A stretch of 64,000 nt of DNA, taken from Chloroflexota bacterium (lineage in GTDB: Bacteria > Chloroflexota > UBA11872 > VXOZ01). Every line of letters begins with the position of its first letter. Position 1 is the first letter of the stretch. The translations under genes were made by a program, and so were the position numbers. The DNA lies in contig OZ244922.1 in NCBI GenBank assembly GCA_965221905.1, positions 1,664,001 through 1,728,000 on the forward strand, in the 5' to 3' direction. The notes beneath the pieces are model-generated. The model made no database searches. It saw nothing but the letters and a program-made list of their open reading frames with translations, and was not told the DNA's origin. This document shows positions 9,609-44,665 of the stretch, one piece after another.

Positions 9609-10475
9609 TTAGCTCATCTGATCGAAGAGATTCTCCACCACGGTCATGGCGTTCTGCGTTACTTCCGGCCGGTTTCGCTTGATATGGTCCTCGAACGTAG
9701 GCTGCTGGGCTTGGTAATGGAGCCCCAAGTAGAGTGGGTCTTCGCTGGCAGCGTACTGCAGAGCGCTGCTGAAGTCGGTGGGATCAAAGTCGGCGGGCAG
9801 GTCTTCAGTGGCGTCCCGATAATACTTGAACGTATTGACCGTATTGAAGGTAGGGCACGGGCTGTACGTATCAATAAAAGCGAACCCCTCGTGCGCGATG
9901 CCGCGCGAGATAAGGTCGGCCAATTCCTTGGGCTTGCTTGAGAACCCACGGGCCACGAACGTGCAGCCGGTGGCAAGAGCGAGCAGAAGCGGATTTACTG
10001 CCGGATCGCTGGCCCCCTGCGGCGTTGCTTTCGTTGCAAGGCCGCGCTCGGCGGTGGGAGAGGTTTGCCCTTTGGTGAGACCGTAGACGGCGTTATCCAT
10101 CACCACGTAGCAAATGTTGAGGTTGCGGCGGATGGCGTGGATAAGATGCCCGACACCGATGGCAAAAGCATCGCCGTCTCCGCCCATTGCGAGAACTGGC
10201 ATATCAGGCTGCACCGCGCGAATCCCGGCGGCAACGGGCATAGCGCGTCCGTGCACCGTGTGGAAGCCGTAGGCATTGGTGAAGAAGGGCAGGCGGCTGG
10301 AGCAGCCGATACCCGATACGATGATAACGTTCTTGGGATCGAAATTGTGTTCGCTCAGCGCCTTGAAAACGGAGGTTAGAACGCCAAAGTCGCCGCAACC
10401 GGGGCACCAGGTTGGGCGCTCATCGCCCTTATAGTCGGCGACCTTTCGCTTCTCTACGGTTACTACACTAGACAT
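9609..10475 (-). CDS. korB: 2-oxoacid:ferredoxin oxidoreductase beta subunit
   Basis: WCPGCGD, SGIGCS, HGR, GDGD...MDN TPP motif, YGLTKGQ. Confidence 0.93.
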   Translation of the reverse strand: MSSVVTVEKRKVADYKGDERPTWCPGCGDFGVLTSVFKALSEHNFDPKNVIIVSGIGCSSRLPFFTNAYGFHTVHGRAMPVAAGIRAVQPDMPVLAMGGDGDAFAIGVGHLIHAIRRNLNICYVVMDNAVYGLTKGQTSPTAERGLATKATPQGASDPAVNPLLLALATGCTFVARGFSSKPKELADLISRGIAHEGFAFIDTYSPCPTFNTVNTFKYYRDATEDLPADFDPTDFSSALQYAASEDPLYLGLHYQAQQPTFEDHIKRNRPEVTQNAMTVVENLFDQMS

Positions 10476-12246
10476 GCTGTGCCACTCCCTCTCTTATCTT
10501 ATCCAGGAGCCAGTCGACGCGGAACGGCATGCCGCCGAAAATGTTGATCCGCACGTATTCGCGTGGGAACCGGCTCGTGATCATGTTGGCAAACTGACCG
10601 CTATAGTTGACTTCGGGTAGGAATATGATTCGTTTGCTTTCTATGAATGGGCGCAATTGCTCGTCCGGCAGCGGCATTAGCATTCTTGGCGCTAACATAT
10701 CGAGCTTCAAGCCATCCAGTGCGGCGCGGTCAATTGCTTCAATAACGGAGCCTACAGTGGAGCCCCAGGTGAGAATGCCGATCTCAGCGGTAGGATCGCC
10801 ATAGCGGTCCGCTTCCGGGGCTTCCAGGGCGGCGCGCTCCAGCTTGCGGAAGCGCTTCTTGGTCATGATAGTGTGCGTGGCCTCGTCATACCGGTGGAGA
10901 CCTTCTTCGTTGTGCTCAAGCCCGGTGGCAATGTATTGCCCACCCGCTTGACCTGGGATTGCCATGGGGGAAACGCCGTTCTCCGTGAGCACGTAACGAC
11001 TATACTCACCGTTTATGCTGCCGACCTCGTCACCGACGCCGACTTCGTCACCGACGCCGTTGCCGTTCTCCGAGAACAATAGACGGTCTACAACCTCGAC
11101 TTCGTTTAGGTCAGGGCGCGGAATGCTCTCTGAACGCACGTTGAGCAGCGTATCGCCAAGCAGGATAACCGGCGTTTGATACTTTTCCGCGAGATTGAAG
11201 GCGTTAACTGTTTGGTAGAAACAGTCTCTTACCGACGTGGGCGCAAGCACGATGCGCGGACACTCACCATGGCCGGCGAAAGCGGCCGAATTGAGGTCTC
11301 CCTGTTCATGTCGAGTCGGCATGCCGGTAGAAGGACCTGCCCGCTGCGCGTCGACGATGACGCAGGGGAGCTCTGCCATCGCTGCGAGGCCGAGCATTTC
11401 AATCATCAGGCTGAATCCTGGCCCGGAGGTCGCGGTCATTGCCTTCGATCCCGCATACGAAGCGCCTAGCACCATGCCGATCGCCGCCAGTTCGTCCTCT
11501 GCCTGCAATGCGTGACCGCCCGTCTTTGGAAGATGGATTTCCAGGAATTCTTTGATGTCGCTGGCAGGCGTAATCGGATAACCCGCCATGAAGCCGCATC
11601 CGGCGGCAATAGCGCCAAGGCCGATCGCTTCGCTGCCGCTAACCATGATTTCGCCGGAATGGGATTTTTCCGGGTAGAGGGCAAAGTTTTCCCGCTGTGG
11701 GATGTGTTCAATGACATAGTCGATGCCGGCCCGGAGCGCATCCAGGTTCTTTTGCACAACCGCTTCGCCTTTACGCAACCACTTCTCCTCGATGAGAGAA
11801 TCAAGGTGTTTTGTCGGCAAGCCAAAGAGCTCCGCCAGCGCGCCAACCGCCACAACATTCTTAGCAATGGGGAACTTAAGTTGGTTCTTCGCTATGTCGT
11901 TGAGCGGAAACTCCACGTGTGCAAAGTGACTGTCGACGGCCGGCGTGACCTCTGAAGGATCATAAACGAGCAAACCGTCGTCCTTGGTCTCGGCAGCGTT
12001 GCGGTCGTAAGCTTCTTGATTGAAGGCGAGCAGAATGTCAACGGAATCGCCTTTGCTGTAAGAGGGTTGGGCACTAAGTCTAATCTGGAAAAAGGCGTGC
12101 CCACCCTTGATCTCCGATGGCGGCTGGGAGTAGGTAAGTATGTGGAATCCACCCCGCAATGCCGCCTGGGTGAGCAATTGTCCTGTGGAGACAATGCCTT
12201 CGCCGGCCTCGCCGGCGACGCGAACGACTAGATCGTTTCTCGTCAT
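10468..12246 (-). CDS. korA: 2-oxoacid:ferredoxin oxidoreductase alpha subunit (gamma-alpha fusion)
   Basis: AGEAGEG, GYPITP, QAEDE, TSGPG, QRAGPSTG motifs; overlaps the korB start. Confidence 0.93.
   Translation of the reverse strand: MTRNDLVVRVAGEAGEGIVSTGQLLTQAALRGGFHILTYSQPPSEIKGGHAFFQIRLSAQPSYSKGDSVDILLAFNQEAYDRNAAETKDDGLLVYDPSEVTPAVDSHFAHVEFPLNDIAKNQLKFPIAKNVVAVGALAELFGLPTKHLDSLIEEKWLRKGEAVVQKNLDALRAGIDYVIEHIPQRENFALYPEKSHSGEIMVSGSEAIGLGAIAAGCGFMAGYPITPASDIKEFLEIHLPKTGGHALQAEDELAAIGMVLGASYAGSKAMTATSGPGFSLMIEMLGLAAMAELPCVIVDAQRAGPSTGMPTRHEQGDLNSAAFAGHGECPRIVLAPTSVRDCFYQTVNAFNLAEKYQTPVILLGDTLLNVRSESIPRPDLNEVEVVDRLLFSENGNGVGDEVGVGDEVGSINGEYSRYVLTENGVSPMAIPGQAGGQYIATGLEHNEEGLHRYDEATHTIMTKKRFRKLERAALEAPEADRYGDPTAEIGILTWGSTVGSVIEAIDRAALDGLKLDMLAPRMLMPLPDEQLRPFIESKRIIFLPEVNYSGQFANMITSRFPREYVRINIFGGMPFRVDWLLDKIREGVAQHV
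11020..11059. repeat. In-frame 18-bp tandem repeat inside korA (encodes GVGDEV x2)
   Basis: GCCGACCTCGTCACCGAC GCCGACTTCGTCACCGAC GCCG; permuted unit is 16/18 identical to the dnaE2 44069 unit. Confidence 0.7.
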
Positions 12247-12486
12247 AAGTCGTGTGCTTTACTTCCTGCGACTGTCCAGTGTTGCTCTACTAGCGCTGTG
12301 CTTGCCCGGGATATGCTTCTATAGGCGCTGTGCAGCAACGCAACGTTAGTATAGTGTATTCATCTCCAATTATATACCAGCGGGCGTATCAATACAGCAG
12401 CTACGAGGGTGGTAGCCGCTAATTACGCCAATATCGTGCCGGCCAATGTGAGTAGGTAATACGCGCTGTCAAGCAAGACGCGCGTG

Positions 12487-20784: not shown

Positions 20785-20878
20785 GAGGGTGTGTACTTGA
20801 GTGAGATAGTGTTTACCTGTGTGACAGTGTGTACCTGTGTGAGAGTGTGTGCTTGAGTGAGATAAGGTGTACTTGAGT
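20779..20878. repeat. Degenerate 18-20 bp tandem repeat (about 5 copies)
   Basis: Units approximating GTGAGA(TA)GTGTGTAC(C/T)TG immediately after the AKR stop codon. Confidence 0.6.
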
Positions 20879-38894: not shown

Positions 38895-39218
38895 ATGTAC
38901 GTTATTGTTGCGCCGATACAGATCAAGGAAGGCTACAGGGATGCCTTTGTCGAAGCGATGTTGGGCGACGCGAAGGGATCGGTCAATGACGAACCCGGCT
39001 GCCTGCGGTTCGACGTGATCCAGGACGCCGGCGACCCGAACCGCATCTGGCTCTACGAGGTCTACGTGGACGAGGCCGCATTCCAAGAGCATTTGAAAGC
39101 GCCCCATTTCATCAAGTGGCGGGATACGGTCAAGGACTGGACGGAAGAGCGGCCCCCGGGAGCAGGAGCCGCGAGGGGTAGTTCCAACATCTGGCCAACG
39201 GACGACGAGTGGAAATAA
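38895..39218 (+). CDS. Antibiotic biosynthesis monooxygenase (LsrG/YgiN-like) family protein
   Basis: EPGCLRFDV, LYEVY, HLKAPHF. Confidence 0.9.
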   Translation: MYVIVAPIQIKEGYRDAFVEAMLGDAKGSVNDEPGCLRFDVIQDAGDPNRIWLYEVYVDEAAFQEHLKAPHFIKWRDTVKDWTEERPPGAGAARGSSNIWPTDDEWK

Positions 39219-39759: not shown

Positions 39760-41202
39760 GTGAAGGTTGCCTGTGTGCTTATTACCCACTTGCGCGCCAA
39801 GTGCGAGTTGCGGCGGCAGCCCGCGCTGGCGGCAGCGTCGGCTGTGATTGTCGACCGCTCGGCGGGCAGCCCTCAGGTCAGTGACGTCTTCCCGGCCGTT
39901 ACCGGGGTAGCGGTGGGCATGTCGCTGGAAGAGGCGCTCTCCCATAATGCCAACGCCGTCGTCATAGAAGCCAACGAACCGGCATACCGGCGGACATTCC
40001 GGCAGGTGCTTACCTCCTTGCAGGAGATTAGCGACCGGGTGGAGCATGCGGCGCCGGGCGTCGCGTACGTGCGCCTCGACGGACTGGAGACCCTCTACGG
40101 CAGTGAAGAGCGGCTTGTTGCTGCCCTGCTGAACGCCGTCCCGCCGGATCTCGCGCCGCGTGTGGGCGTGGCGGACACAAAATTTCCCGCTCTGGTTGCC
40201 GCTCAAGCCAGCCGGGCGGGTGCGGTAACGCGGATTCCCGATTATGCGGCTGCGTTCTTGGCGCCGCATCCCGTTACGCTTTTGCCGCTCGGTCCCGCAG
40301 TGCTGGCGCGCATGCAACGCTTCGGCTTACGCACCCTGGGCGACGTGGCGGCCATGCGTGTAGACCAACTCAGCGACCAGTTCGGCACTGACGGTACACG
40401 GGCCTGGCAGCTCTGCCACGGCATAGACGACGAACCCTTTGTCCCGCTAAAACACGAGGAGTCTGTCACCGCGCACGTCACGCTGCCGTTTGTCTCTACC
40501 TCCCTGGAACTCTTCATGGTAACGTTGGACGGTCTGTTGAAGAGCGCGTACGCGCGACCGCAAATGCGGGGGCGGTATGCGGAGAAGGCCACCATACAGT
40601 GCAGCCTTTTCCGCTCGCTGCCGTGGGAGAAGGTAATCAACTTCAAGCACGGCGTGGGCTGCGAGCGGGCCGCGCGCATCATCAGAAGCCGTCTGGAATC
40701 CGACTATCCTCCCGCGCCCGTCGAGGAAGTGACGCTCACCCTGGCGAATCTAACGGGCGAGTCCGCTATGCAGATGGGGCTGCTCCGCGATGTCCGCAAG
40801 GATAGGACCGACCGTTTAGTAGAGGCGGACAGACAGCTCCAAGCCCGTATGCAGGGCAAGCGCGCGCTGTTCCGGGTGGTGGATATTGCGCCCTGGCATC
40901 CCGCGCCGGAGTTGCGCGCACTGCAGGTGCCCATCGATCCGGCAGTGAAGGACAGCATGAAACCGCTGGCGACGCCCACGGCAGCGGAAGTGCGGGCAGG
41001 TGAGGATAACCAGCCCGTAGCCGTACGCCTGAAGAACCGTTGGCACCAGGTAGCCTGCATCGACGACCAGTGGTGCTTCGATCTCTGGTGGCTGGCTGCG
41101 CCGCTTACGCGTACCTATTACCGGGTGCGGCGGGCAGATGGTATTCCGCTCACCCTGTTCCATGACCGGAGAGGCGGACGCTGGTATCAGCAGGTCTCAT
41201 AG
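39760..41202 (+). CDS. imuB: Catalytically inactive Y-family polymerase ImuB
   Basis: Y-family fold motifs without the catalytic acidic residues (VACVLITH; VEHAAPGVAYV), clamp-like motif QMGLL, C-terminal W..WW...RTYYRV domain. Confidence 0.85.
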   Translation: MKVACVLITHLRAKCELRRQPALAAASAVIVDRSAGSPQVSDVFPAVTGVAVGMSLEEALSHNANAVVIEANEPAYRRTFRQVLTSLQEISDRVEHAAPGVAYVRLDGLETLYGSEERLVAALLNAVPPDLAPRVGVADTKFPALVAAQASRAGAVTRIPDYAAAFLAPHPVTLLPLGPAVLARMQRFGLRTLGDVAAMRVDQLSDQFGTDGTRAWQLCHGIDDEPFVPLKHEESVTAHVTLPFVSTSLELFMVTLDGLLKSAYARPQMRGRYAEKATIQCSLFRSLPWEKVINFKHGVGCERAARIIRSRLESDYPPAPVEEVTLTLANLTGESAMQMGLLRDVRKDRTDRLVEADRQLQARMQGKRALFRVVDIAPWHPAPELRALQVPIDPAVKDSMKPLATPTAAEVRAGEDNQPVAVRLKNRWHQVACIDDQWCFDLWWLAAPLTRTYYRVRRADGIPLTLFHDRRGGRWYQQVS

Positions 41203-41212
41203 GGACAGCCGC

Positions 41213-44200
41213 ATGTTTTCGACAAAGTCGCCGTCTTCGACGCAGTCGCCGTCTTCGACGCAGTCGCCGTCTTCGACGCAGTCGCCGTCTTCGACGCAGT
41301 CGCCGTCTTCGACGCAGTCGCCGTCTTCGACGCAGTCGCCGTCTTCGACGCAGTCGCCGTCTTCGACGCAGTCGCCGTCTTCGACGCAGTCGCCGTCTTC
41401 GACGCAGTCGCAGTCCGCCGGATACGTTGAGCTGCACGCCAAGAGCTTCTACTCCTTCGGGACGGGAGCCTCCCACCCGCACGAGTTGCTCGCCCAGGCC
41501 AAGGCGTTCGGCTATGCTGCGCTCGCCCTGACCGACACCAACCTCTGCGGTGCGCTGGACTTCGCACGCCTTGCCAACAGCCTGGAGGTCCGGCCCATCA
41601 CCGGCGGCGAGCTCACCCTGCTGGATGGTTCGCGCCTTGTTCTTCTGGCCAGGACGCGGGAGGGCTATGCCAACCTTTCGCGGCTGTTCACGCTGGCGAA
41701 CGCCGTGGACCGTCGGGAGCCGCGGCTGGACCCGGCACATCTCCCGAAGCATGCTGCAGGCCTGATTTTGCTCACCGGCGGCCGTGACGGAACGCTGGCG
41801 CGATTAGTCGAGGCAGGCCGCCACCAAGCAGCGATGACACTGCTGAAAGAGTATGTGGCATGGTACGGCGACTTCGTCGAAGACAACGACCTCGTTGGAG
41901 ACAACCGGGACGCGGTGTACGTGGAACTGCAGCAGAACTTCCTGCGCGGCGACACCAAGCGCAATAGCGAACTGGCGCGGCTTGCCCAGGACGCAGGCGT
42001 ACCCGTGGTCGCTACCAACGACGTGCACTATCACGCGCCGGAGCGCTACCGGCTGCAGCACGCGCTGGAGGCCGCCAAGCGCAATATCACCATCGACCAG
42101 GCGCTTCCCCACCTCAAACCTAACCATCACCTGCACCTGAAGTCCCACGCCCGGATGGAGCATGTTTTAAAAGACTATCCTGAGGCCATTGCCAACACCG
42201 CGAAGATCGCAGAGCAATGCACGTTCGATCTCAGTACCGATCTTGGCTACACCCTGCCTGATCCCGACGTGCCGGAGGGCTTCACGCTCATTGCGTACCT
42301 GCGCGCGCTCTGCGAGACGGCAGCGGTGCGGCGCTACGGCACAATATCGGTACAGGTGAAGGCACGGCTGGACGAAGAGTTTGACCTGATCGAGAAACAC
42401 GGGCTCGCCGGTTTCCTGTTGCTGTATCGGGAGATCGTGCGCATTGCGCGGCAGATGATGGTGGAGCGCGGTTTGGTGAGCCCTGAAACGCCGTTGGAGG
42501 AGCGGCCGCCGGGCAGAGGGCGCGGCTCATCGGTGGCGCTCTTAGTCGGATACCTCATCGGCATCAGCCACGTGGACCCGCTCAAGTGGAATCTCACCCT
42601 GGAGCGCTTCATTTCCGCGGACATGACCATGCTGCCCGACATCGACCTGGACTTTCCGCGAGAGCTTAGGGACCCGTTGCTGGAGCGGGTGCACCGGCAT
42701 TTTGGGCCGGAGTACGCTGTGCTGGCCGGCGCTATCGCTACCTATTCGGTAAAAGGAATCGTCCAGGACCTGGGGAAAGCCCTGGGACTGCCCAAGGAAG
42801 ACCTGTCGCTCCTTTCCAAGCAACTTCACTCGCACGATGCCGTCAATCTCAAGGAAGAGATGCTGGCGCTGCCGGCTTTTCGGGAGAAAGTGACGGCTGC
42901 GGGGTGGCGCGACCTCATCCGGCTCGGGCCTGCGCTCATGGATGCACCCAAGGGACTTGGTCAGCACGTCGGGGGCATGATCCTGAGCGACACGCCCATT
43001 TCGGCGCTGGTACCCATTCGTGCCGGCGCTATGGAGGGCCGCTACATCATGGACTGGAACAAGGATTCCGTGGCGGATGCCAACTTTGCCAAGATCGACC
43101 TGCTCTCCCTGCCCGTCCTCGACCAGATCGAAGAGGCGCTGGACCTGATCGCAGCCAGAGAAGGAGCGCGGCCGGACCTGAGCCGGGTCGATCCTGAAGA
43201 CTCGCAGGTGTACGATATGATCAACGCGGGGCGCTCCATCGGCATCTTTCTGCTCCAGTCGCCCGCGCAACTCAAGATGGGGCAACGCCTGCGGTCGCGG
43301 ACTTTGCTGGATTTAGCCTATCAAGTGGCGCTTATCCGTCCCGGTGTCGGCGTGCAGGGGAGTGCGGTCTCGCAGTTCGTCGAGCGGTACCGGCACGGCG
43401 TCGCCTGGGAGTACGATCATCCCTTGGAGCAGCGCGCGCTGGAGCGGGGCTACGGCATCATCGTGTGGCAGGAGCAGGTGGTGCAACTCATCATGGACGT
43501 GGCCGGCATGACGGCGGCGCAAGCCGACGAAGTGCGGCGAGCGTTCGGCAAGCCCAACAACGCGCACCTGATCGCCATGCACTGGCAACATTTTTTAAAA
43601 GGCTCACGGAGTAGGGGAGTGCCTGAGGCAGTTGCGGAGAAGATTTTTGCCAAAATCAACGGTCACTACATGTTTCCGGAGAGCCACAGTCATGCCTTCG
43701 CCATCACGGCCTATCAGGCTGCCTGGCTGAAGCGCTACTACCCGCTGGAGTTCTTCATCGGCTTGATGAACAATCAGCCCATGGGCTTCTATCCGCTGGA
43801 AACCCTCAAGCAGGACGCGCAGAGCTTCGGCGTGCCGTTTCTGAATCCGTGCGTGAACCGCAGCCAGGTGCGGTGCATCCCCGCGGAGGGCGCGGTGCTG
43901 CTGGGGTTGCGGTTCGTCAGGGATATAGGGGAAGAGGTGGCGCAAAACATCGTTGCTGAGCGGGAGAGCGGCGGCCCTTACACCGGAGCGAGCGACTTCG
44001 TGCGGCGCACGGGGGTGAAGCCCCAGGCAGCGCAATCGCTGGTGCAAGCGGGGGCGTTCGACGGGATCACGCCGACTTCGTCGCAGACGCCGACTTCGTC
44101 GCAGACGCCGACTTCGTCGCAGACGCCGACTTCGTCGCAGACGCCGCATCGTCGGGTAGCGCTCTGGGAGGCCGGTCTCGCTATTCCTCCCGCCAAGCAT

Positions 44201-44665
44201 GGGCAACGCGCCTTTCCGGTGGCGACGGCAGACAATGTGCCCCAGATGGCGGACTTCGACGACTTCGAGCGGATGGTGGGCGAGTATGCGGTCATGGGCA
44301 TCTATCCCAAGGGGCACCTGATGGAGCACTTCCGACCCTCGCTGGGCCCTGAGGTGCTGCCCACCGTCGCGATAGAAGACGTGAAAGAGGGTGAGCGGAT
44401 ACAGGTAGCCGGGTGGCCGGTGGCGCGGCAGCATCCACGCGGCAGGGACGGCACGGTGTTCGTCACCATCGAGGACGAGGTGGGCAGCGTACAGCTCATC
44501 CTCTGGCCGCGGGTCTTTGCCCGCCACCGGAGAGCGCTGGGGAGTCAGGTGATCCTGGCGCACGGTGTGGTGTCACGCTGGGACGGCACCACCAACGTCA
44601 TCGTCTCAGCGGTGCGGGCGCTTGACGCCTCGGTGCCCATGCCTGCCTCTCACGACTGGCACTAG
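41213..44665 (+). CDS. dnaE2: Error-prone DNA polymerase III alpha DnaE2/ImuC
   Basis: YVELHAKSFYSF, TNDVHY, GRGSS, PDIDLDF, KIDLLSL, FPESH, NNQPMGFY, terminal SHDWH; ATG at 41213 just after the imuB stop. Confidence 0.95.
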   Translation: MFSTKSPSSTQSPSSTQSPSSTQSPSSTQSPSSTQSPSSTQSPSSTQSPSSTQSPSSTQSPSSTQSQSAGYVELHAKSFYSFGTGASHPHELLAQAKAFGYAALALTDTNLCGALDFARLANSLEVRPITGGELTLLDGSRLVLLARTREGYANLSRLFTLANAVDRREPRLDPAHLPKHAAGLILLTGGRDGTLARLVEAGRHQAAMTLLKEYVAWYGDFVEDNDLVGDNRDAVYVELQQNFLRGDTKRNSELARLAQDAGVPVVATNDVHYHAPERYRLQHALEAAKRNITIDQALPHLKPNHHLHLKSHARMEHVLKDYPEAIANTAKIAEQCTFDLSTDLGYTLPDPDVPEGFTLIAYLRALCETAAVRRYGTISVQVKARLDEEFDLIEKHGLAGFLLLYREIVRIARQMMVERGLVSPETPLEERPPGRGRGSSVALLVGYLIGISHVDPLKWNLTLERFISADMTMLPDIDLDFPRELRDPLLERVHRHFGPEYAVLAGAIATYSVKGIVQDLGKALGLPKEDLSLLSKQLHSHDAVNLKEEMLALPAFREKVTAAGWRDLIRLGPALMDAPKGLGQHVGGMILSDTPISALVPIRAGAMEGRYIMDWNKDSVADANFAKIDLLSLPVLDQIEEALDLIAAREGARPDLSRVDPEDSQVYDMINAGRSIGIFLLQSPAQLKMGQRLRSRTLLDLAYQVALIRPGVGVQGSAVSQFVERYRHGVAWEYDHPLEQRALERGYGIIVWQEQVVQLIMDVAGMTAAQADEVRRAFGKPNNAHLIAMHWQHFLKGSRSRGVPEAVAEKIFAKINGHYMFPESHSHAFAITAYQAAWLKRYYPLEFFIGLMNNQPMGFYPLETLKQDAQSFGVPFLNPCVNRSQVRCIPAEGAVLLGLRFVRDIGEEVAQNIVAERESGGPYTGASDFVRRTGVKPQAAQSLVQAGAFDGITPTSSQTPTSSQTPTSSQTPTSSQTPHRRVALWEAGLAIPPAKHGQRAFPVATADNVPQMADFDDFERMVGEYAVMGIYPKGHLMEHFRPSLGPEVLPTVAIEDVKEGERIQVAGWPVARQHPRGRDGTVFVTIEDEVGSVQLILWPRVFARHRRALGSQVILAHGVVSRWDGTTNVIVSAVRALDASVPMPASHDWH
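41228..41407. repeat. Perfect 18-bp tandem repeat x10 (TCGCCGTCTTCGACGCAG; SPSSTQ) at the dnaE2 N-terminus
   Basis: 180 bp of exact copies with partial flanking copies. Confidence 0.95.
41865..41905. repeat. Degenerate 18-bp repeat x2 in the dnaE2 PHP domain (GDFVEDNDLVGDN)
   Basis: ACGGCGACTTCGTCGAAG is 17/18 identical to the permuted reverse complement of the 41228 unit. Confidence 0.6.
44069..44146. repeat. Perfect 18-bp tandem repeat x4 (ACGCCGACTTCGTCGCAG; TPTSSQ) in dnaE2
   Basis: Four exact copies plus ACGCCG, just after the conserved AGAFD motif. Confidence 0.93.

Follow-up and report, generated by a model that had tools for sequence, protein, structure and literature searches.

The stretch of DNA analysed here (the window, 64,000 nucleotides) is the segment G000:C1:1664001-1728000 of the genome of an uncultured Chloroflexota bacterium. 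This genome (G000) consists of one contig, C1, of 3,520,010 bp with 58% G+C; related genomes are coded G001 and so on and fetched loci carry L numbers. The subject of this work is a family of 18-bp tandem repeats that occupies three sites of dnaE2, a gene for an error-prone DNA polymerase III (Pol III) alpha subunit, all three arrays being in frame within one open reading frame (ORF 41213-44665). At the N-terminal site (site 1) Tandem Repeats Finder (TRF) gave a period of 18 with 11.0 copies and 98% matches; ten copies of the unit TCGCCGTCTTCGACGCAG are exact (41228-41407) and are translated as (SPSSTQ)x10. The internal array (site 3) has the same period with 4.8 copies and 97% matches, and its four exact copies of ACGCCGACTTCGTCGCAG (44069-44140) are translated as (TPTSSQ)x4. 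The two units differ at positions 1, 7 and 13 only, each time by A/T, and pairing is preserved in that the stems CGTC-TTC-GACG and CGAC-GCA-GTCG of one unit become CGAC-TTC-GTCG and CGTC-GCA-GACG in the other. Site 2 is degenerate (TRF 41869-41905, period 18, 2.1 copies, 84% matches); its segment 41867-41884 (GGCGACTTCGTCGAAGAC) agrees at 17/18 with the reverse complement of the first unit and at 16/18 with the second unit on the same strand, and it is read in another frame. These features, together with the C-GCA-G and C-GAA-G loops of the units, had been pointed out in a first-pass annotation of this DNA and could all be read directly in the sequence and its translation. No in-frame ATG, GTG or TTG was found from 41213 to the conserved YVELH motif; the N-terminal array is therefore translated if the conserved N-terminus is made.

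The name dnaE2 is reasonable, judged from sequence comparison, because the ORF contains the Pol III alpha domains (Pfam order PHP, DNA_pol3_alpha with the NTPase label, finger, HHH_6, OB), its best NCBIfam model is NF004225 'error-prone DNA polymerase' (765 bits, under the curated cut-off of 939) ahead of the DnaE equivalog model (579 bits), an ImuB-like gene with an IMS domain ends 10 nt upstream and a second DnaE, 29% identical to the product, is encoded elsewhere in G000. The same architecture, model ranking, neighbour and separate DnaE place the product with DnaE2/ImuC. Matches of the ImuB-like gene to DNA polymerase IV models of NCBIfam are weak, every one being far under the cut-off, and no imuA-like gene adjoining the cassette was seen among the window ORFs and their Pfam matches.

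The repeat is not peculiar to dnaE2. Among 51 period-18 rows obtained by running TRF on the whole of G000, nine have consensus units that match a dnaE2 unit at 15-18 of 18 positions on either strand. Arrays of the family lie at no fewer than eight G000 loci besides dnaE2, and a search allowing mismatches adds one two-copy site plus some single units. Host frames were defined as the stop-free frames around the arrays and were named by Pfam (Table 1). Many housekeeping genes carry the arrays in frame, at N- or C-termini, in inter-domain linkers or in loops, and one G000 array sits just after a stop codon. The skeleton of the unit is (G[A/T]C-NNN)x3, and its usual form is GAC TTC GTC GCA/GAA GAC GCC or the near-identical reverse complement.

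Table 1. Repeat sites of the 18-bp family in G000 and the genes that carry or adjoin them; positions are those of the window.
Feature	Position	Strand	Identified by
dnaE2-type error-prone Pol III alpha gene with three repeat sites	41213..44665	+	ORF, Pfam
ImuB-like (Y-family-polymerase-like) gene	39760..41202	+	Pfam IMS, E 1.2e-11
dnaE2 site 1, N-terminal array of TCGCCGTCTTCGACGCAG units with degenerate ends, read (SPSSTQ)n	41218..41415	+	TRF
dnaE2 site 2, two degenerate units inside the PHP region, GWC as codons, read GDFVEDNDLVGDN	41865..41905	+	TRF (41869-41905)
dnaE2 site 3, internal array of ACGCCGACTTCGTCGCAG units with a partial unit, read (TPTSSQ)n, HHH_6-OB linker	44069..44154	+	TRF, Pfam
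2-oxoacid:ferredoxin oxidoreductase alpha (POR alpha) gene 10471-12258, 2.2 units, read GVGDEVGVGDEVG	11020..11059	-	TRF, Pfam
leuS (leucyl-tRNA synthetase, LeuRS), array at N-terminus			Pfam
Thiamine pyrophosphate (TPP) enzyme, array in linker between middle and C-terminal domains			Pfam
AAA_5 ATPase, array directly before first P-loop			Pfam
NuoG-like oxidoreductase, array in C-terminal tail			Pfam
Transglutaminase core protein, array in loop preceding HAWVE motif			Pfam
glyA (serine hydroxymethyltransferase, SHMT), array at N-terminus			Pfam
RNase P protein (RnpA), single unit			Pfam

The consensus 18-mer is read in four of its six frames, which give the peptides S/T-P-S/T-S-S/T-Q, D-F-V-x-D-A and, from the opposite strand, A-S-A-T-K-S and G-V-G-D-E-V. 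Examples are TPTSSQ in dnaE2, DFVADA in glyA (same strand, other phase), ASATKS in the AAA ATPase (opposite strand) and GVGDEV in POR. The two frames never used, LRRRRR and RRLRRS, are arginine-rich. Only Ser/Thr-rich and Asp/Val-rich phases were found: the 11 coding sites in G000, on both strands, divide into eight in the Ser/Thr phase, three in the Asp/Val phase and none in the Arg phase, an absence that would have a probability of (2/3)^11 = 0.012 by our own arithmetic if the phases had equal odds. Seven more hosts, at loci retrieved from relatives by patterns in which A and T are interchangeable, are likewise read in these two phases; among the sites are the C-terminal tail of a signal-peptidase-like protein, a loop of a short-chain dehydrogenase and the start of aroB. 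Two apparent Arg-phase arrays, L114 and L117, came from longest-ORF calls and were set aside, since by eye they look like Arg-rich antisense frames; at L117 the real gene appears to be a 736-aa frame on the opposite strand, in which the array falls in the Ser/Thr phase. This 736-aa frame (G011:C1:553100-556132) contains two family insertions in different phases, one Asp/Val-rich (EDVVCDEDVVCDEV...) and one Ser/Thr-rich (GSVSTTGSASTTGS). The gene called signal-peptidase-like, on inspection by eye, terminates in a long array of the family at L113 (G008:C7:1-1533), L118 and L119, with VVFDEV repeated at least seven times in G008.

The use of one 18-mer family in four of six frames of unrelated housekeeping genes supports the view that what is shared is the DNA rather than the peptide, a point on which the first-pass annotation appears to have been right. 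Had Ser/Thr/Pro/Gln-rich flexible linkers been selected at the peptide level, with the DNA likeness arising from a bias to NCG codons, the SPSSTQ/TPTSSQ frame would be well explained: there the three A/T swaps all exchange Ser and Thr, every codon of the unit but one (WCT) is NCG and the sites are termini and linkers. This explanation is improbable, however, and is largely refuted by the reading of the same 18-mer as TPTSSQ, DFVADA, ASATKS and GVGDEV; in the GWC phase the swaps are non-conservative exchanges of Asp and Val, one array is found immediately beyond a stop codon and the peptides differ between species. The array peptides are most likely without function.

The periodicity itself exceeds expectation. 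G000 contains ten runs of at least five G[AT]C triplets spaced 6 nt apart, with lengths up to 33, against 0-2 in each of 12 triplet-block shuffles, so that the genome scan proposed at the outset for a periodic G[AT]C motif gave a clear excess. The 33-nt pattern (GWCNNN)5GWC has 55 matches per strand in G000 and 0 for the backwards control. After masking of the arrays, solo units with 0-1 mismatch, counted over 18 rotations, gave 32 matches against one for the backwards control; these come down to about eight short stretches (18-27 nt) whose coding context is ambiguous. By a rough estimate, three sites in one 3.4-kb gene are unlikely to be due to chance when about a dozen are spread over 3.5 Mb, and the cause is probably that a non-essential gene tolerates insertions, that the repeat has spread locally, or both.

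The pattern (GWCNNN)5GWC was found in all 17 genomes of the genus (2-63 matches per strand, compared with 0-1 for the backwards control) and also in 48 of the 81 genomes of the class outside it (65/98 with the genus), where it is mostly represented, among the matches listed, by GAC-only Asp repeats. Because this loose pattern is unspecific outside the genus, a tighter one, GWCTTCGWCNNNGWCNNNGWCTTCGWC, was substituted and searched in a phylum-wide sample of 401 genomes, 11 from the genus and 390 from other Chloroflexota. It is present in 11/11 and 8/390 of these, respectively; seven of the eight outside genomes have uniform A or T, one is mixed and the alternating form occurs in none. Among the genomes searched, the family thus appears to be confined to one genus of uncultured Chloroflexota.

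Copy number was compared at orthologous sites. When 16 DnaE2 orthologues were aligned, the five from outside the genus proved to have no residues at site 1, site 2 or site 3. Among members of the genus site 2 has 0, 18, 36, 72 or 90 extra bases, the N-terminal site holds 0-5 units of differing sequence in the relatives compared with ten in G000, and the hypervariable site 3 ranges from nothing, as in G010, to about 60 residues. The three dnaE2 segments are therefore insertions, as had been supposed when this alignment was proposed. G004, the closest relative of G000, has the unit GTC TTC GAC GAA GTC GCC (SPSSTK), with GAA in the place of the GCA of G000; other units at dnaE2 sites are AASSPQ x5 in G009, TPASEK x4 in G015 and APTSQD x3 in G007, all three without CGWC stems. 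Exact loss is also seen, G004 being without site 2, which is present in both its closest relatives. The POR site carries 0, a partial, 1 or 2 units in 17 genomes, the TPP enzyme site 0-3 units (16-17 genomes) and the transglutaminase site, in 16 genomes, none in two and about 3-6 units in 14. At all of these sites, dnaE2 included, the peptides are not conserved between species.

Species thus differ in copy number by whole 18-bp steps, zero included, and arrays have been gained repeatedly. The head-to-tail units and whole-unit variation at dnaE2, POR, TPP enzyme, transglutaminase and aroB are those of a coding minisatellite or variable-number tandem repeat (VNTR), and the 18-bp steps at termini, linkers and loops agree with the slippage-prone behaviour in permissive places that had been suggested from the dnaE2 arrays. 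Unit variants track the locus more than the genome, so frequent homogenization between loci is not indicated. In G003 dnaE2 lies in two pieces about 40 kb apart, G003:C1:1070138-1072864 (residues 248-1150) and G003:C1:1111686-1112309 (L008, residues 42-253), the break being about 20 residues downstream of repeat site 2.

The start of aroB bears on how an array is born. Of 16 genomes, 13 are empty there; G005 has gained 54 bp, G012 18 bp and G015 72 bp of family units, in each case directly after ATG GAA GAC G; the empty alleles mostly begin ATG GAA GAA GC... and that of G000 begins ATG GAA GAC GCC. With GAAGACGC(C) the aroB start holds one half of the unit GAC TTC GTC GAA GAC GCC, giving a 9-nt match to it. 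In a tree of four proteins (1559 columns) G005, G012 and G015 belong each to a different clade with good support and have empty relatives next to them; three independent gains are far more parsimonious than one gain followed by at least seven exact losses. A similar picture is seen at the start of a 518-aa protein, where three copies of the exact first dnaE2 unit are present in G006, a diverged array in G001 and only the proto-unit-like TCGCCCCCATCTTCC in G000.

The role of hairpins was considered separately. The coding strand of the unit has C-GCA-G and the opposite strand C-GAA-G, each a GNA triloop closed by C-G as in the definition of mini-hairpin DNA, and such loops are described as very stable in the parts of PMC13037366 and PMC3201870 that deal with the motif. 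The first-pass annotation had taken the pairing-preserving swaps to mean that structure is conserved, and an element whose C-GNA-G mini-hairpins are kept by compensatory change, acting in insertion seeding, replication or mRNA, would be expected to carry this published motif and to show complementary neighbours. Since the number of GWC triplets per unit is odd (three), at most 2/3 of neighbour pairs can be complementary, and values at this ceiling were obtained within the genus (64/95 in G000 and 90/147 in fetched in-genus loci, compared with 5/37 outside); the pairs flanking TTC are both complementary in 31 of 34 cases, mixed in two and not complementary in one (hand count among the matches listed, genus genomes without G000). 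However, six of the eight A/T combinations reach the ceiling of two complementary neighbour pairs, so that the complementarity test has little power. The reverse complement of GAC TTC GTC GAA GAC GCC is GTC TTC GAC GAA GTC GGC, and intermediates of the GAA type occur in G000 and G004; the unit being nearly self-complementary, the dnaE2 units can be linked via such intermediates and a strand flip, and common descent from one unit with strand inversion yields the same pattern. The pair next to the closing pair is A-T, unlike the G-C of the canonical GCGAAGC. Predicted single-stranded DNA folds were not more stable than dinucleotide shuffles (z = +0.84, +0.44, +1.35 and -1.07), although nearest-neighbour models may miss GNA loops, and expansion at the dnaE2 sites has also taken place in the stem-less arrays AASSPQ x5, TPASEK x4 and APTSQD x3. 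The arrays keep no fixed position relative to gene features that would hint at a function. The compensatory-swap argument is accordingly weak, and the proposal that hairpin structure is the conserved feature, which had been built on dnaE2, is not supported in that form by the comparison with other loci, folds and stem-less arrays; selection for structure is a doubtful explanation of the family. Fold-back is better seen as a plausible aid to slippage than as a demonstrated constraint.

An assembly or sequencing artefact in repeat-rich metagenome-assembled genomes (MAGs) was also weighed. Three public runs from two studies, none of them listed as RNA, contain 94-96% of the sampled words. Contigs built from short words of these runs break within the arrays, ending about 30-40 nt into each (stops at 41255 and 44098, resumption at 41382 and 44117), and the loose contig ends at the internal dnaE2 array lead into the flanks of other family loci; contig G008:C7 starts inside the signal-peptidase-like array, so assemblies do break at these repeats. 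Nevertheless, the flanks are identical in contigs of runs from the two studies, and up to 16 genomes, each assembled separately, have the arrays at orthologous sites, always in multiples of 18 and with frames intact, which makes an artefact scarcely credible.

Several known systems resemble the family in part. Rickettsia palindromic elements (RPEs) are single elements of roughly 100-150 bp, from which the present family differs in its 18-bp tandem unit, its copy-number turnover and its occurrence in Chloroflexota. In-frame palindromic insertion into functional genes is common to both, and RPEs are likewise selfish-looking palindromic DNA in frame at tolerated sites of housekeeping genes, as far as the passages on them in PMC3733652 and PMC2996958 go. 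Intragenic repetitive extragenic palindromes (REPs), both GTAG- and CGTC-tagged, are often grouped units that encode 20-30 residues in known proteins, including tRNA synthetases and DnaE2, and their insertion in linkers and termini is considered neutral by the authors, according to the relevant sections of Di Nocera et al. (2013, PMC3733652). Small palindromic repeats within genes, with tRNA synthetase and DnaE2 hosts, are thus shared. REPs as described there measure 20-40 bp, with stems of 5-13 bp and an unpaired tag, and are mostly extragenic and not head-to-tail, whereas the present unit has 18 bp, a 4-bp stem and a 3-nt loop, is always tandem and nearly always coding and varies in 18-bp steps. 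For the CGTC-tagged superfamily, Table 1 of PMC3733652 gives a stem of 8-9 bp, a loop of 4-5 nt, an unpaired CGTC tag and a 3-bp tail; the present arrays contain only CGWC/GWCG stems of 4 bp with 3-nt loops, and CGTC lies within the stem.

Mobilization of the arrays as a micro-REP by a RAYT/IS200-type tyrosine transposase would draw on a Y1_Tnp homologue above the Pfam cut-off in G000 and on the published REPs in DNA repair genes including DnaE2 (PMC3733652, in the sections on intragenic copies). The Y1_Tnp gene (G000:C1:3327899-3328216), however, stands beside another hairpin repeat family (3328331-3328595), so no REP/RAYT pairing (REPtron) was found for the 18-bp family; a 4-bp stem with a 3-nt loop is far from REP size, the insertions are integral tandem units and their flanks have no common tetranucleotide. 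We consider such mobilization very improbable.

PARCELs, as presented in the pertinent parts of PMC2996958, are 75-nt (25-residue) units defined by a protein hidden Markov model (HMM), which are carried by accessory and surface proteins and disseminated through horizontal gene transfer, their palindromy having in the authors' view helped the spread into ORFs. Intragenic tandem repetition and dyad symmetry in coding DNA are common to both, but the present family has no conserved peptide, core-enzyme hosts and, among the genomes searched, one genus. Its period of six residues excludes a 25-residue repeat, and Pfam scans of the hosts list no repeat family at E<=0.001, the comparison having been made without the PARCEL HMM. 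With coding VNTRs and minisatellites it shares head-to-tail units, a unit length that is a multiple of three and copy numbers that differ between close relatives; ordinary VNTRs are locus-specific, whereas the present unit family has members at no fewer than a dozen unrelated loci, in either orientation and several reading frames, and has been gained repeatedly at one site. The tandem six-codon unit sets the family apart from intragenic REPs, RPEs and PARCELs as these are described. A literature search that did not extend to the supplementary intragenic-REP tables of PMC3733652 returned related concepts and no description of the 18-bp family, in line with the initial impression that it is not a described element.

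The explanation that we prefer, with a probability of about 0.6, is a genus-specific family of quasi-palindromic 18-bp coding minisatellites, in which microhomology provides the seed, slippage the expansion and the tolerance of the peptide the filter. An array would be seeded where a gene already has a short match to the unit, such as GAAGACGCC at the aroB start, presumably by microhomology-primed copying from an existing array without a transposase. Replication slippage would then lengthen and shorten it, perhaps helped by fold-back of the self-complementary unit, and selection would purge insertions that break folds or create poly-Arg tracts. In quasi-palindrome or short-range template switching (PMC7954356, PMC13100816) one event can alter several bases and can make or homogenize inverted repeats, so that the triple A/T difference could have come about in this way with no selection on structure; the process is known for local switches within a fork, and distant seeding would need a longer-range version.

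Several points weigh against this explanation. BLAST of G005, G012 and G015 found no identical donor for the G005 aroB array, the best paralogous match being 86% over 51 nt, so templated copying is inferred rather than shown. We know of no established case of long-range microhomology-primed copying in bacteria. The hairpin role is unproven, and both the fold predictions and the stem-less arrays given above count here as well. The N-terminal arrays of leuS, glyA and aroB could lie upstream of the true start codon. An older, variable linker could have given rise locally to the single unit at the TPP enzyme site. As the contigs of the public runs break in the arrays, copy number within the population cannot be read from them. 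Related genomes are not independent samples, and since species share loci by kinship the counts overstate the support.

A more far-reaching version, which we think unlikely, is a transposase-free, self-propagating 'mobile minisatellite', in which the near-palindromic 18-mer would copy itself into coding sites with about 9 nt of microhomology by template switching at stalled forks or gaps, possibly with participation of the ImuB/DnaE2 mutasome, whose own gene has been colonized three times, and would add disordered segments to core enzymes throughout the genus. On the preferred reading of a slippage-expanded coding minisatellite, the family would add a very small new class to the bacterial repeats that colonize coding DNA (RPEs, intragenic REPs and PARCELs), one that is tandem, moves in six-codon steps and is tolerated in four frames. 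The three apparently independent gains at one microhomologous site of aroB would provide a concrete handle on the birth of insertions, and the family would illustrate how low-complexity, probably disordered segments can join essential enzymes without peptide selection. For annotation, Ser/Thr-rich or Asp/Val-rich hexapeptide repeats in these MAGs should be suspected of reflecting DNA dynamics and not functional motifs; for assembly, breaks or mis-sizing are possible at these arrays.

G000 is rich in other hairpin repeats. The unit CCGTTCGCCCTGAGCTTGTCGAAGGG forms a perfect 26-bp x15 array at G000:C1:2566060-2566455, and the hairpin family CGCAGGTTTGTAACCTGCG occurs in arrays of period 42-180. 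The Y1_Tnp gene mentioned above (L139, IS200/RAYT-type) is about 100 nt from its neighbouring repeat, which has an 80-bp period and GGGGAACAAGCCCC hairpins; the two may form a REPtron of that other family. Within the window, a further period-18 array at 20785-20862 (GAGAGTGTGTACCTGAGT, 4.2 copies, 77% matches) is unrelated to the dnaE2 units (9/18), and a small gene for an ABM-family monooxygenase (38895-39218) lies upstream of the imuB-like gene.

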